Positions 6,115-47,564 of a stretch of 64,000 nt of DNA are shown piece by piece. Source of the DNA: an uncultured Actinomycetota bacterium (GTDB taxonomy: Bacteria; Actinomycetota; UBA4738; HRBIN12); the NCBI GenBank assembly GCA_963737525.1, contig CAVTTD010000039.1:5113-69112 (forward strand), given 5' to 3'. Made by a program: the position numbers and the translations under genes. Each line of letters begins with the position of its first letter. Within the stretch, counting starts at the first letter, position 1. Below the pieces are notes generated by a model, which was not told where the DNA came from, ran no database searches, and saw only the letters and a list, made by a program, of their open reading frames with translations.

Positions 6115-6840
6115 CTAGAGCCTCGAGATGACGAACGCCGTCGCGAGCACCGGCATCGCGATGGCCAGGAGCTTCAGCGCCGCCTCAGGCGCCGTTCTGA
6201 TGACATCGGCCCCGAGCGGCTCCGTCGTGCCGTCCCGCAGCGTGATCGTCCCCTCGACGGCCGCGACCCGTCGCCGGAGGCGGCGCACCGGCGTCGACAG
6301 CACGCGCTGGGCCGCGCTGATCGCGACGCAGCCGCCCGCGACCAGGACACCCGCGACCTCCAGCTTCCCGTCCTGCGCGAACGCTCCGGTCAGCGCGGGG
6401 AAACCGCCCCACGCGATCGCGAACCACAGGTCGGAGTGGAACGAGCCGCCGAACAGCTCGAGGTTGTAGGCGACGACGAGGAACGCGCCGGCCACGATGA
6501 ACGCCGCGAGCCACGCCGACACCTGGACGATCCCGACGATACCCACCGCCGCAGCGCCTGCGAGCGAGACGATCGCGACGCCCCGGAGAACCCGATCCGA
6601 GATCGAGGTCCCCAGAGGCCGACCCCGGAGCTCGTCGAGCGCGTGCGCCGCGAGACCCACGCCGAGGAAGAAACCGAGCAGGCTCATCCCCAGCCGATAG
6701 AGGTCCACCTCGGCCGCGGTCGCTGCCCCCATCGCGACGTACGAGAGGTGCCACACCGTGTACGGCGGATGCAAGAGCGTCCACCAGTCCCGCCAGCCAC
6801 CGGGATCGAGCGCGTAGAACGCAGGTCGGCCTTCGCTCAT
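6115..6840 (-). CDS. UbiA-superfamily-like polytopic membrane protein (degenerate Asp motif)
   Basis: ATG at 6840. Multiple TMs, LLHPPYT, AAHALDELRGRPLGT at the first Asp-rich motif position, YNLE, WGGFP. Coupled to the upstream methyltransferase. Confidence 0.65.
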   Translation of the reverse strand: MSEGRPAFYALDPGGWRDWWTLLHPPYTVWHLSYVAMGAATAAEVDLYRLGMSLLGFFLGVGLAAHALDELRGRPLGTSISDRVLRGVAIVSLAGAAAVGIVGIVQVSAWLAAFIVAGAFLVVAYNLELFGGSFHSDLWFAIAWGGFPALTGAFAQDGKLEVAGVLVAGGCVAISAAQRVLSTPVRRLRRRVAAVEGTITLRDGTTEPLGADVIRTAPEAALKLLAIAMPVLATAFVISRL

Positions 6841-7554
6841 CTGCCCTTCACGCCCCAGAGCACGACGGCGGAGCCGAACAGGAACGTTCGCGTGCGGACG
6901 TGCCGGATGCCGGCGCCCTGGAACCAGCGCACCCACTCCTCCAAGGGATGCGCGGCGACGAAGCGCGAGACGTTCGGCCCGAGGAAGGCGGAGGTGCGCG
7001 CCCATGCGGGAGAAACGACGGTCCCGAGGACCGGCATCAAGAATCTCGTGTGGACCCACCAGCCGGCGCGGGCGATCACCGGATCCGGGACGTGGAACTC
7101 CAGCATCCCGATCGAGCCGCCGGGGCGGATCACCCGGGCGAGCTCCCCGACGGTGGCAGCCGGATCTTCCACGTACCGCAACAGGTACGTGAACGTCACC
7201 GCGTCGAACGCGCCGTCTTCGAAGGGGAGGCGCTCGGCTTGTCCGAGGACGGAGTGGATGCGGTCGTCGAGGCCGGCCAGTCGGTTCGGCTCACGACCCG
7301 CTCGCAGCATCGGTTCGCTCTGGTCGAGCGCGACGACTCGCACGTTCTTCCGCGCCGCCAGCTCCCGGGAGACGAGTTGTGTGCCGGCCGCGACGTCGAG
7401 CGTCCACGATCCCGGCACCGCGTTCGTCTTCGACACGAGGAAGCGCCTCCACCGTTCGTCCTGACCGAACGACAGCAGCGCGCCCGGTGCGCTCGTACTG
7501 CGGGGCGATGCCGGCGAACAGTCGTTGCGCGAAGCGGTTCGGATCGGGCACCAT
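6837..7554 (-). CDS. UbiE/MenG-family methyltransferase, frameshift near 7490
   Basis: FAGIAPQYE...LLSFGQDERWRRFL, LDVAAGT, LDQSEPML, AERLPFEDGAFDAVTFTYLLRYVED, LARVIRPGG, LEF. Confidence 0.85.
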
Positions 7555-30944: not shown

Positions 30945-32387
30945 ATGGCCGTCGACGTCCGCCGGAAGGTCCCCTCGGTGGATGCGCTCCTGCGTTCGGA
31001 TCCCGCACGGAAGGCGACCCGGTCGCTCGGGCGACCGCTCCTGAAGCGGATGCTCGAAGACGTGCTCGAGGAGGTCCGATCGGCCGCGGCGCTCGGGCAG
31101 GATCCACCCTCCGACGACATCCTCCTCGCCCGATCTCTCGAGCGCGCCTCCCATGCGGCGCAGGGGATGGTGCCGGTGATCAATGCGACCGGCGTCATCC
31201 TGCACACGAACCTCGGGCGCGCGCCGCTGCCCGAGCGCGCAGCGCGAGCAGCGGCGCGCGCCGCTCGGTCCTACACCGACATCGAGGTCGACCGGGAGAC
31301 GGGACTCCGCGGCAAGCGCGCCCGGCGCGCCGAGATCATGCTCACGGCGCTCACCGGCGCGGACGCGGCGATGGTGGTCAACAACTGCGCCGCAGCGCTC
31401 CTGCTGGCGATGGCCGCCCTCGCCAAGGGGAAACAGGTCGTCGTCTCGCGGGGCGAGCTCATCGAGATCGGGGGGGAGTTCCGGATCCCGGACATCCTCG
31501 CGGCGTCGGGGGCTCGGCTCGCCGAGGTGGGCACCACGAACCGGACACGGATCGGCGATTACCGGGCCGCGATCGGTGAGAAGACCGGACTGATCCTCAA
31601 GGTGCATCCATCGAACTACCGCATGATCGGGTTCACGGCGGCTCCGTCGACGGCCGATCTCGCCGGGCTCGCCCGCAAGCACGGAGTGCCGTTCCTGTTC
31701 GACGTCGGATCCGGGTTGCTGCATCACGGCCACGGTCACCCGGCAGACGAGCCCAGCGTCACGGACGCGCTCGCCCAAGGAGCCGATCTCGTGACGTTCT
31801 CGGCGGACAAGCTGCTCGGCGGACCGCAGGCAGGCATCCTCGTCGGACGGGCCGACCTGTTGGACAGGCTGCGCCGGCACCCGATCGCCCGCGCGGTTCG
31901 CATCGGCAGGATCCAGATGGCTGCCCTCGAGCAGGTGCTCGCGACCATCGCCACCGGGAGGGAGGAAGAGATCCCGGTGTTCCGCATGCTCCGGGAAACC
32001 CCGGAGACGGTCCGCGACCGTGCCCATGTGCTGTCCGAGACGATCGGCGGAGAGCTCGAGGGAGCGCGGGTCGTCCGTTGCGAGTCATCGGTCGGCGGAG
32101 GTTCGATGCCGGGGACCGCGGTGGCTTCGTGGGGGGTTCGCATCCAGGTCCCGGACGCCCCCGCCTTCGCCGCCCGGCTCCGCACGGGCACGCCGGCCGC
32201 GTTCTCGCGGGTCGAGGATCGGTTCATCCTGCTCGATTGCCGGACCGTGACGGACGCGCAGGTCCCGCATCTCGCACGGGCCGTGCACTACGCACTGGAG
32301 GGCGACGAGGAGCACGGTCACGACCTCCACGGTGACGATCGTCAGGACCCGAACGGAACCGACGCCGGTCGCGACGTCGACGCGTAG
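30945..32387 (+). CDS. selA: L-seryl-tRNA(Sec) selenium transferase
   Basis: [80 protein letters not shown]. Confidence 0.97.
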
Positions 32388-34246
32388 ATGAACGAGCTCC
32401 GAGTCGTGGCCACCGCCGGCCACGTCGACCACGGCAAGTCGTCGCTGATCGCGCGACTCACCGGGATGGATCCCGACCGCTGGGACGAGGAGAAGCGGCG
32501 CGGGCTCACCATCGACCTCGGGTATGCATGGTGCGATCTCCCTTCCGGGCGCGAGGTCGGCTTCGTGGACGTACCCGGTCACGAGCGATTCATCGCCAAC
32601 ATGCTCGCCGGCGTCGGACCCGTCCGACTGGTGCTGTTCGTGGTCGCGGCAGACGAGGGATGGCGTCAGCAGTCGGAAGAGCATCTCGCGATCCTGGATG
32701 TCCTCGGGGTGGCGGGCGGCGTCGTGGCGCTGACGAAGCGCGACCTGGTCGACGAGGACGCCCTCGACCTCGTCGAGGAGGAGATCCGCGAACGCATCGA
32801 CGGCACGGCCCTGTCGGACGCCCCCGTCGTCCGCGTGTCGGCCGAGACGGGGGACGGGCTCGACGAGCTGCGCACGGCGCTCGACGACCTATTGGCGAAC
32901 GCACCCACTCCCGCCGACGAACGCGCGCGGTTGTTCGTCGACCGCGTGTTCACGATCGCGGGCGCCGGGACGGTCGTCACGGGGACGCTCGGCGGCGATC
33001 GCCTCCTGGTCGGCGAAGAGGTGGAGCTCTACCCGCGCGGGAAGATGGCGCGGATCCGTTCGCTCCAGACGCACAAACGGGACGAGGGACGAGCGGATCC
33101 GGTGACGCGCGTCGCCGCCAACCTCGCGGGTACCGGCAGAGCGGAGCTCGCGCGGGGAGACGTGGTGGGGATGCCGGGCGCCTGGAGACCGACGACCGTC
33201 TTCGAGGGCGTGCTCCGCCCGGTGCGTGGTCTCCCGCACCCGATCACCGCTCGGGGAGCGTTCAAGGTCCACGCCGGCGCGGCGGAGTCCGACGCTCGGA
33301 TCCGTCTCTTCGGCGGCGCCCGCCTCGAACCGGGACAGGAAGCCTTCGTCCGGATCACGACGGCACGCCCCTTGGTGCTCGACGTCTTCGACCGCTTCGT
33401 CCTCAGGGAGTCGGGCCGGCGGGAGACCCTGGGAGGCGGCTCGGTGCTGGATCCGGCGCCGCCGCGGCGGGCCGGACCGGCCCCGCAGGAGCGTCTCGCC
33501 CGGCGCGCCGCGGCGGCCCGCGACGACCTCCCCGCGATCCTCGCCGACGAGCGGGGAGCCGTCCGGGCATCGGATGCGGTCGCCCTCACGGGCTCGACCG
33601 CCGGCGTTCCCCAGGCGGGCGAGTGGTTGCTCCGGGACGGGCTGCTCGGAATCGGCGGGCACCGCGCTGGTCGACCACATCGGGGCGTTCCATGAGGTGC
33701 ACCCGCTGGAAGAAGGAGAACCGCTGGCCTCGGCTCGCCGCGCGCTCGCCGCGTCCCTCCGCCCCCTCACCGGAGCCCCGGATCCCCGTCTCGTCGATGC
33801 CGTCCTCGACCGCCTGACGGCAGATGGGCTCCTGACCCGCACGAGCACGTCGATCGCGCTCCCCTCGCATCAACCCGCCGACCGCGAGAACGACCCCGCC
33901 GATCCAGCATCTGCTGTCGGCGATCGCCTCCGAGCCGGCGCAGCCTCCGACGATCAGAGACCTGGTCGCAGAAGGGGTCGGCCTCGACGCGGTCGACGCG
34001 GCCGGCAGGGCCGGCCTCGTCGTGCGCGTCGGCCCCGATCTCGTGTTCACGCCGGCGCTCATCGAGCGGGCGGAAGCCATCGTGGCGGCGGCCGGCAGCT
34101 CGGGCATCACCGTGAGCGCGTTCCGGGAGGCCCTGGGGACCAGCCGGAAGTACGCGGTGCCGCTCTTGGAATGGTTCGACCAACGAGGCGTGACCCGTCG
34201 AGAGGGCGACCTGCGCTACCCACGGGTCGACCGATCGGGGTCCTGA
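32388..34246 (+). CDS. selB: Selenocysteine-specific elongation factor, frameshifts near 33650 and 33900
   Basis: [54 protein letters not shown]; C-terminal winged helix [27 protein letters not shown]. Confidence 0.95.
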
Positions 34247-45476: not shown

Positions 45477-46080
45477 ATGGACAAGATCGGACCCAAGCAC
45501 CGCATGTGCAGACGTGTCGGCGCTCCGCTGTGCGGGCGCCCCAATTGTCCTGCCAACAAGCGGCCATACCCACCCGGCATGCACGGCCGCGGCCGCAAGC
45601 GGATCTCGGAGTATCAGACCCGGTTGGTGGAGAAGCAGAAGATGCGCGCGATCTACGCGGTCGGGCGAGCGACAGATGCGCAAGTACTACGAACGGGCGC
45701 ACCGGTCGATGGGTGTGACCGGCGAGGAGCTGCTCAAACAGCTGGAGACCCGGATCGACTCGGTGATCCTGCGTCTGGGGTTCGCCCTGACGATCCACCA
45801 GGCCCGCCAGCTCGTGTCCCACGGTCACGTGCTGATCGACGGCAAGCGGATCGACGTCCCCAGCGCCCAGGTGAAGCCGGGTCAGGAGATCAGCCTCACC
45901 GAGAAGGCGCGGAACTTCATCTCGGTGCGCGAGGCGATCCAGATCACGCCCGAGCCGCCCGCCTATCTCTATCGCAACAAGGACGAGATCAAGGGCGCGT
46001 TCACGCGGATCCCGGAACGGGACGAGATCCCGCTCCCGGTGACCCTCGAGGAACGCCTCGTCGTCGAGTTCTACTCCTAG
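45477..46080 (+). CDS. rpsD: 30S ribosomal protein S4, frameshift near 45665
   Basis: KRPYPPGMHGRGRK, SEYQTRLVEKQK, LETRIDSVILRLGFA, ARQLVSHGH, VDVPS-like IDVPSAQVKPG, VVEFYS. Confidence 0.95.
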
Positions 46081-46086
46081 GGACGC

Positions 46087-46818
46087 ATGGTCGCCCCTTC
46101 CGGCGACGCTTCCACCCTCGACCGGGACGTCCGGCTCGCCGTGTATCGGACGTTCGTCGAGGACGGGCGCCCTCCGACCGCTCCCGAGATGGCCGTTGCG
46201 CTCGGCGTCGAGACGCCGGACATGGAGGCCTCGATCCGGCGGCTCGCGGAGGACCACGTCCTCGTGCTCGCACCGGGAACGCCCTACGTCTGGATGGCGA
46301 ACCCGTTCTCCGCGATCCCGACGCCCTTCGAGGTCGAGGTCGGCGACCGCCGGTACTTCGGCAACTGCATCTGGGATGCCCTCGGGATCCCCGCATGCCT
46401 GCACGCCGACGCGCGCATCCGAACGTCCTGCCCGGATTGCTCCGAACCTCTTCCGATCGACATCCGGGACGGGGAGCTCGACGCTCCCGCCGGTGCCGTG
46501 ATCCATTTCGCCGTTCCCGCCGCGCACTGGTGGGACGACATCGGCTCCACCTGAGCGAGCATGCTCCTCTTCCGGTCGGAAGAGCACGTGAGGCGATGGG
46601 CGGAGAACCGACGGTCCGCGATCGGAGCGACCTTCACCCCTCGACAGGGATGGCGGCTCGCGACCGCCTGGTTCGAAGATCGACTCTCGCCGGACTGGCG
46701 GCGGAAGACGCCCGAGGAAGCGCACGCGATCTTCACGGACATCGGACTCACCGGTCCCTTCTGGGACCTGACGTCGAAGGTTTCCTCGTCCGACGGGGTG
46801 GATACACCAGGGGCATGA
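46087..46818 (+). CDS. MerB (organomercurial lyase)-like protein, predicted selenoprotein (UGA at 46552-46554), 243 aa
   Basis: ORFs 46087..46554 and 46561..46818 are in the same frame and separated only by TGA-GCG-AGC. N-terminal HTH, MANPFSAIPTPF, FGNCIWDALGI, RTSCPDC, WWDDIGST-U-ASMLLFRSEEHV. A SECIS-like hairpin follows the UGA. Confidence 0.85.
46555..46587 (+). promoter_or_regulatory. Bacterial SECIS element (predicted)
   Basis: CTCTTCC-GGTC-GGAAGAG stem-loop (46567-46584), extendable with a bulge. The GGUC loop is at +23..+26 counting the U of UGA as +1, against +22..+25 in E. coli fdhF. Confidence 0.8.
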
Positions 46819-46952
46819 CCGACATCCTCATGCACCTCGCCCAACGTCTGCGCGGAGACGACGGCTTCGTGATCGGCCGGGTCGCCCTGGTCGTGCTGAT
46901 CGTCGCGATCGTCATCGTGGCCGCGCTCGTGGCGTTGATCGTTCCGAACTAG
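46815..46952 (+). CDS. 45-aa single-TM protein with an Flp/class III signal-like N-terminus
   Basis: ATGA overlap with the upstream stop; MTDILMHLAQRLRGDDG-FVIGRVALVVLIVAIVIVAALVALIVPN. Confidence 0.6.
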   Translation: MTDILMHLAQRLRGDDGFVIGRVALVVLIVAIVIVAALVALIVPN

Positions 46953-47564
46953 CGATCGCCCACCGGCTCCAGCGCCGCGCGGACGAACGCGACGACCTCT
47001 CTCTCCCGTCGCCGAAGTGACGCGCGGCTCTTGTCGGCGCCCACGACGGCGTTCAGGACGCTCGCCTCGGTGAGGGATCCCGACGACCGCCGTGTACAGG
47101 GTGAACAGAAGCATCGTGGGGTCTTGCTTCCGAACCTGACCGTCGTCCATCCCGGACCGGAGGAAGTCGATCGCGCGACGCCTGAGCGGATCGAGCACAT
47201 CGGCGAAGCGCTCGAACGCGAGCGGGCCGAGTCGGCCGGCCTCTCTGATGAACATCGGGAACTCCGGCCACTCGGCGGCGAGGTCGAACACGGAGTGGAT
47301 CACGGCTTCCGCGCGCTCCCAGTACCCCTCCTTGCCCTCGAGTGCACGCGCGATCTCCTCCGCGAGCCGGACCCCCGCCGCCTGCAGGCACGCTTCCAGC
47401 AGCGCGTCCTTGTTCTGGAAGTAGTACAGGAGGGTCTGCTTGCGGACGCCGACGGCGCCGGCGATGTCGTCGAGGCTCGCGCCTCCGTAGCCCTCACGAC
47501 CGAACTGCCGGATCGCCTCCTCGATGAGGGTCGAACGCCGTTCCTCGCCGCCGGTCCTCGGCAT
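46949..47564 (-). CDS. TetR/AcrR family regulator, frameshift near 47075
   Basis: LIEEAIRQFGREGYGGASLDDIAGAVGVRKQTLLYYFQNKDALL. Confidence 0.92.

Follow-up and report, generated by a model that had tools for sequence, protein, structure and literature searches.

The question raised by this locus is whether a reading frame that is interrupted by a single in-frame TGA, and that continues directly behind it, is one gene or two. In the window (the whole stretch of 64,000 nt of DNA that was analysed), inspection of the plus strand gave a frame of 155 codons from the ATG at 46087 to the TGA at 46552-46554. This is followed by 87 more open codons, beginning with GCG AGC ATG, up to a terminal TGA at 46816-46818. 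The first-pass annotation of this DNA had described two same-frame ORFs joined by TGA-GCG-AGC and had read them as one MerB-like selenoprotein; its coordinates were exact. Our sequence comparisons lead us to consider it highly likely that the segment is a single gene for a 243-residue enzyme of the MerB fold, in which UGA156 would be decoded as selenocysteine (Sec). The features of the locus can be seen in Table 1.

Table 1. Features of the predicted selenoprotein gene and of its surroundings, in window positions.
Feature	Position	Strand	Details
selA (selenocysteine synthase)	30945..32387	+	PF03841, 388 bits
selB (Sec-specific elongation factor)	32388..34246	+	TIGR00475, 281.6 bits, N-terminal part; three frames
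rpsD	45477..46080	+	
MerB-like selenoprotein gene (predicted), complete	46087..46818	+	243 codons including Sec156; PF03243 match
C94-I-W-D97 motif, aligned with MerB Cys96...Asp99	46366..46377	+	invariant in 81/81 Sec forms
C115-P-D-C118 (CxxC)	46429..46440	+	C115 aligned with MerB Cys117; C118 family-specific
In-frame TGA (U156), MerB Cys159 equivalent	46552..46554	+	alignment to PDB MerB/MerB2; conserved column
Bacterial SECIS (predicted)	46560..46590	+	lower helix 46560-46563/46587-46590; upper stem 46567-46573/46578-46584; GGUC loop 46574-46577
45-aa ORF	46815..46952	+	
TetR-family regulator	46949..47564	-	

The protein obtained by reading through the TGA matched the Pfam MerB family (PF03243) with 109 bits against a cut-off of 27. 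The match covered the complete model (positions 1-126 of 126) over residues 74-197 and thereby spanned the TGA. In MerB, Cys96 and Cys159 are the metal ligands and Asp99 is the proton donor. HMMER alignments to solved chains (MerB2 5C17; MerB 3F2G, 3FN8 and 1S6L) placed C94 on Cys96, D97 on Asp99, C115 on Cys117 and the TGA on Cys159, and the single sequence and the 81-sequence profile agreed on this. The earlier proposal that GNCIWD supplies Cys96/Asp99 and that the UGA stands for Cys159 is borne out by these alignments to MerB and MerB2 chains, and Cys94, Asp97 and Sec156 would correspond to the catalytic triad Cys96/Asp99/Cys159. The AlphaFold2 model built from the 81-sequence alignment had a pLDDT of 90.6 and a pTM of 0.87. 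When it was compared with the PDB using Foldseek, 11 chains were returned at E<=0.001, every one of them MerB or MerB2 (best E 2.7e-12, TMt 0.71). Downstream of the TGA, residues W195, R199, W204, F225 and W226 are nearly invariant among the Sec-form loci. The two cysteines of the CxxC motif are found in 81/81 (C115) and 80/81 (C118) of the Sec forms, and both are present in about 31 of the 52 full-length forms; the motif is missing from divergent Sec forms of the Ilumatobacter type.

Homologues were collected by scanning one genome per species, which gave 193 loci, and the best 80 of these 193 (43-74% identity) were compared. All 80 have a TGA at the same column, tblastn HSPs cross it, and 69-87 codons behind it stay open until a TGA, TAG or TAA is reached. 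These best 80 loci belong to Actinomycetota, Chloroflexota, Acidobacteriota, Gemmatimonadota, Dormiibacterota, Planctomycetota and Calditrichota, roughly seven phyla. The TGA form is also present in about 17 same-genus genomes. Of 401 evenly sampled Actinomycetota species, 50 were found to have the family, with a single in-frame TGA in about 31 and none in about 12. The residue that precedes U is Thr in about 62 of the 81 Sec forms, otherwise Asn or Ser, and never Cys. Could the TGA have arisen by nonsense mutation of a MerB-like gene that once had Cys at this position, or by an error in sequencing it? The assembly does have errors or lesions, with frameshifts in selB and rpsD, and selB appears broken. 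However, these visible errors are indels rather than substitutions, whereas the TGA recurs in every one of the 80 genomes, the codons downstream of it are conserved as protein, and the hairpin described below is kept at synonymous sites. The comparative data effectively refute a dead gene or an error, and we give this explanation practically no credence.

The hairpin that had been pointed out behind the TGA, CTCTTCC-GGTC-GGAAGAG with its loop at +23..+26 (the T of TGA being +1), was exactly as described. It begins 12 nt past the UGA and consists of a 7-bp stem closed by a GGUC tetraloop, and below it CAUG pairs with CGUG in a lower helix. The fold energy of the single sequence was unremarkable for DNA of 69% G+C (z = 0.29). 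Since fold energy is ordinary in such G+C-rich DNA, the case for a SECIS rests on the comparison with other genomes. A search of 46500-46660 against Rfam at a permissive threshold gave only noise, with no family matching the hairpin, and a crude genome-wide scan for a TGA, a GGU-loop hairpin and an open frame returned 16 candidates, most of them implausible.

Among the 81 UGA alleles, all seven stem pairs are formed in 74 and the GGTC loop is present in 80. Covariation in these alleles was above that of all 500 shuffles and of all slid controls. The closing C-G pair is changed to U-A in 11 sequences, by means of an Arg to Trp codon change together with TCG to TCA, and further stem pairs show C-G to G-C and C-G to U-A changes. 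The choice of synonymous codons is restricted as well: codon entropy is 0.10 bits at Leu161, compared to 1.83 at other conserved Leu columns and 2.0 at the adjacent Leu160, and it is 0.22 at Arg163 versus 1.81 for Arg elsewhere. This loss of synonymous freedom is confined to the stem and loop. In three divergent Sec forms (L120-L122) the stems are CCUCC/GGAGG, CCUUC/GAAGG and GCUUCC/GGAGGC, and GGUC is still exactly at +23..+26. The peptide L-F-[R/W]-S-E-E encoded here occurs in 70/81 Sec forms and in 1/52 full-length forms, and therefore part of what looks like a protein motif is an RNA constraint.

The minimal SECIS of Escherichia coli fdhF comprises nt 15-31, with G23 and U24 in its loop (PMC8659212). 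The likeness to fdhF that had been suggested is a fair comparison, as both hairpins lie within the coding region just past the UGA and carry G and U in the apical loop at about 23-25 nt. The present hairpin differs in that its loop is 1 nt further from the UGA (G23 G24 U25 C26), its upper helix is a perfect 7 bp with no counterpart of the bulged U17, and its stem also codes for L-F-R/W-S-E-E, unusually invariant across phyla. A nearly invariant SECIS that also specifies L-F-R-S-E-E would be a clean natural case of RNA structure constraining a protein.

Genes for selenocysteine synthesis and insertion are close by. The first-pass annotation had placed selA and selB 12 kb away, and both were found 12-15 kb upstream of the MerB-like gene, with selA intact; selD is also intact, on another contig (C26, 385 bits). 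Searches with ARAGORN and RF01852 did not reveal a tRNA-Sec gene (selC) in the MAG, which is 58.7% complete; their top matches were tRNA-Ser. A tblastn comparison with SelB from a same-genus genome (614 aa, intact) located changes of frame in selB near 33650 and 33880, and selB is intact in same-genus genomes. The essential gene rpsD, which ends 7 nt ahead of the MerB-like start, is frameshifted at about 45664-45671 relative to the intact 200-aa orthologue of a relative (L001), its S4 N-terminal and S4 domains matching in different frames. Because essential rpsD is frameshifted too, the frameshifts in selB are likely assembly indels rather than gene decay. Across the 401 Actinomycetota species, selA is present in 29 of the 31 carriers of the Sec form versus 237 of the 370 other genomes (Fisher p = 2.7e-4, odds ratio 8.1, a statistic that ignores phylogeny). 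As a side observation, 260 of the 401 species have selA above the cut-off, a high share of Sec users in a sample made up mostly of uncultured lineages.

Cys/UGA alternation at this column had been set beforehand as a test of the selenoprotein reading, together with a SECIS kept only in the UGA alleles. In 52 full-length relatives the column is occupied by Cys in 47, Trp in 2, and Ala, Tyr and His in 1 each. The expected alternation with Cys is thus the rule; the occurrence of Trp or other residues, which had been named as evidence against the reading, is limited to the two Trp (TGG) alleles and the three with Ala, Tyr or His. As for the hairpin, GGUC is retained in 80/81 UGA alleles and lost in 5 of the 6 Cys alleles for which DNA was compared, where it is replaced by GCUC, GCGA, GCAC or UGUC and where the stems keep 4-6 of the 7 pairs. 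GGUC is lost even in Cys alleles that encode L-F-R-S, because their Arg codon is CGC rather than CGG. The GGUC hairpin is almost exclusively a feature of UGA alleles; a single short contig combines TGC with a nearly complete hairpin, which looks like a recent conversion. In the maximum-likelihood tree, a Sec clade of 78 rows contains 75 Sec forms and 3 nested Cys forms, and clades with Cys only lie outside it. Phyla are interleaved in this gene tree (for example L038 from Rubrobacteraceae, and L028 and L045 from Chloroflexia inside the Pyrinomonadaceae group), which implies that the selenoprotein gene with its in-frame SECIS has been transferred horizontally on repeated occasions.

The Trp alleles are genuine TGG, and both are metagenomic: the hairpin is perfect in one (L114, 255-950) and decayed in the other (L115, 160-828). 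The proteins may have lost their activity or taken on another function, or the codons may be read errors, as each allele comes from a single short contig.

That TGG occurs at this column in two relatives, in one of them with an intact hairpin, might also suggest that the UGA is recoded as something other than Sec, through near-cognate readthrough with Trp or Cys or through a lineage-specific change of the genetic code. Such a reassignment is contradicted by the use of TGA as a normal gene terminator: it ends the MerB-like gene of the window itself and that of 51/81 loci. Moreover, the usual alternative residue is Cys and not Trp, and the hairpin shows the features typical of a SECIS that is bound by SelB. 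We therefore regard non-Sec recoding as extremely unlikely, and decoding as Sec is retained below.

A further possibility is that translation ends at the UGA and restarts six nt on at the ATG of M159, so that pieces of 155 and 85 aa assemble into a split MerB. It would be consistent with the near invariance of this ATG (+10..+12) among UGA alleles, and gene callers annotate exactly such pieces. On the other hand, Cys forms, which are uninterrupted, have Met or Ile at the M159 position as well, which indicates a constraint on the protein; reinitiation has no use for a hairpin that keeps GGUC at a fixed distance and shows compensatory changes; and Sec forms track selA. The fold assembled in this way would be without the Cys159 ligand, the very catalytic residue that the Cys forms supply. 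We consider both the split protein and a ligand-free site of this kind very unlikely compared to a single Sec-containing chain.

The prediction that standard annotation would divide the gene agrees with what databases hold. Close relatives in a large protein collection make up more than 100 clusters of stumps, 150-157 aa long, that all end at the UGA site, and all database copies of the family in this analysis are stumps of 144-157 aa. It follows that over 100 clusters are mis-annotated and that the catalytic half is missing from protein databases. One example comes from a cultured actinobacterium, Ilumatobacter fluminis, whose RefSeq entry WP_133869697.1 is a 144-aa 'organomercurial lyase' that ends at the UGA. 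Its divergent Sec form (L120, G128:C1:3288498-3289118) has no CxxC, carries an 8-aa deletion past the SECIS region, and keeps GGUC in the same position on a different stem.

We then compared the family to known MerB-like proteins. A MerB-like 'selenocysteine-assisted organometallic lyase', SaoL (NF040728), has been described (Haft & Gwadz, bioRxiv 10.1101/2022.07.06.499078; J Bacteriol 2023). It has a C-U dipeptide, belongs to a nine-gene SAO locus, and is found in about 0.3% of species, which are strict anaerobes among Clostridia, spirochaetes and Deltaproteobacteria (10.1101/2022.07.06.499078). SaoL is also the family behind the remark of the first-pass annotation that MerB-like selenoproteins have been reported in clostridia. 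The two families share the MerB fold (PF03243), a Sec that superposes on MerB Cys159, the equivalents of Cys96 and Asp99, and database copies cut at the UGA, and the substrate of SaoL is likewise suspected not to be restricted to mercury (10.1101/2022.07.06.499078). Membership in SaoL was rejected, however, with 45.1 bits against the NF040728 cut-off of 140 in an alignment limited to residues 13-134. The present proteins have a [T/N]-U instead of a C-U dipeptide, an additional invariant CxxC and a conserved C-terminal extension. Unlike SaoL, they have no SAO locus or conserved neighbourhood in the 81 loci, and they occur in about 8% of the sample of 401 Actinomycetota species, with Actinomycetota, Chloroflexota, Acidobacteriota, Gemmatimonadota, Dormiibacterota and others as hosts.

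Canonical MerB was rejected as well (NF009710, PRK13239, 48.4 bits versus 193; NF033555, lyase_MerB, 39 versus 200). MerB (R831b, 3F0P/3F2F) and MerB2 (5C17) have the same fold as the present protein, with Foldseek E values of 2.7e-12 to 1e-9 and TMt of 0.61-0.71, and the positions of Cys96, Asp99 and Cys159 and the equivalent of Cys117 are conserved. The differences from these enzymes are Sec in place of Cys159, the lack of Cys160 and an identity of only about 19-23%; in contrast to canonical MerB, the gene lies outside a mer operon, and MerA was present in just one of the carrier genomes checked. Novelty had been claimed for the family and the lineage, and this claim stands against the inventories of prokaryotic selenoproteins from 2022 and 2026, where the only entry under MerB is of the SaoL type. 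MerB goes wholly unmentioned in the main text of the BSepDB paper. The family is a second Sec-containing MerB-like lineage, far more widespread than SaoL and ecologically different from it.

The surroundings of the gene offer no partner. When all ORFs within ±3 kb were clustered, no neighbour family was found in more than 8 of the 81 loci, and sharing was seen only among close relatives; the longest ORFs flanking the loci were mostly shadow frames of high-G+C DNA. The first-pass annotation had noted that merA is absent nearby, and no true MerA was found in the source genome, where the best matches, all on other contigs, reach 327 bits (cut-off 454). MerA above the cut-off was found in 4 of 29 relatives, just one of which, a same-genus genome (G016), carries the Sec gene. 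The Sec MerB-like gene stands alone, independent of MerA. In view of the lack of conserved neighbours, the rarity of MerA and the position outside an SAO locus, the handling of the product must differ from that of the classical mer system, and in this stand-alone context without MerA the substrate need not be an organomercurial.

Genome G016 has a bona fide MerA (593 bits) and, a few kb apart, an ordinary merB-like gene without the stop and with 30% identity (G016:C147:1975-3354 and 6789-7346). Its Sec MerB-like gene is on a different contig, and the two systems coexist unlinked.

The mechanism we propose draws on the comparative evidence and on homology to MerB. While the UGA is being read, SelB·GTP·Sec-tRNASec would bind the hairpin, and Sec would be inserted instead of termination taking place. 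Sec at the position of MerB Cys159 would, judging from the sequence alignment, complete a MerB-type site with Cys94 and Asp97. The most likely chemistry, by homology, would be a protonolysis of the MerB type that breaks a bond between carbon and a metal or metalloid, with Cys94 and Sec156 as the ligands of the metal and Asp97 as the source of the proton. In both roles, as nucleophile and as ligand for soft metals, the selenolate would be stronger and more acidic than a thiolate. More speculatively, C115xxC118 is a candidate relay that could take over or release the tightly Se-bound metal.

The protein could instead be a real selenoprotein that is not a lyase, serving in the binding, trafficking or sensing of soft metals or of selenium; with its N-terminal winged-helix-like domain it might be a scavenger of Hg, Cd or Cu or a regulator. 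Several observations would fit. The N-terminus of some relatives matches HTH_20, and the N-terminal domain has weak fold matches to the winged helices of LexA and MntR/DtxR. A Se-Hg bond would impede turnover and no MerA partner is present, while copper is bound by MerB2 and by a D99S mutant (PDB entry titles; 10.1101/2022.07.06.499078). However, the N-terminal domain of canonical MerB has the same fold and is not a regulator, and Asp97, which as a proton donor is required for catalysis alone, is kept in all of the 81 Sec forms but in just 25 of the 52 wider full-length relatives. This pattern speaks in favour of catalysis over mere binding, and we consider a non-catalytic role, including that of a scavenger or regulator, rather improbable. 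For the lyase that we prefer, the difficulty of releasing mercury from a Hg-Se bond argues against efficient mercury turnover without a partner.

Taken further, the family might be an abundant and unrecognised group of selenoenzymes that work alone and cleave carbon-metal(loid) bonds without MerA, in mostly aerobic bacteria of soils and sediments, a proposal that we put forward only tentatively and hold to be somewhat doubtful. If it were true, the hosts would be Gaiellales, Solirubrobacterales and other Actinomycetota, Pyrinomonadaceae, Chloroflexota, Gemmatimonadota and Dormiibacterota, and they could possess a MerA-independent route of methylmercury demethylation or, alternatively, act on another native organometal(loid) substrate that requires selenium rather than sulfur. 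Selenoproteomes are dominated by redox proteins of the thioredoxin fold. The present family would lie outside that group and would add a widespread selenoprotein to phyla usually regarded as aerobic soil dwellers. A MerB-type Sec site without MerA raises the questions of whether soils have an unrecognised organometal lyase activity that contributes to methylmercury turnover, and of how a metal bound to the selenolate would be released.

Two minor observations concern the 3' side of the gene. The TetR-family regulator on the minus strand converges on the 3' end of the MerB-like gene and is not conserved beside it in other phyla. The 45-aa ORF, for which there was no Pfam match, begins with an ATG that overlaps the terminal TGA of the selenoprotein (ATGA) and encodes one hydrophobic helix (...GFVIGRVALVVLIVAIVIVAALVALIVPN). 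Some relatives of the same genus (L001, L007, L106 and L107) have it immediately behind the gene as well, with 53-64% identity, and its product may be a translationally coupled small membrane partner restricted to one sub-lineage.
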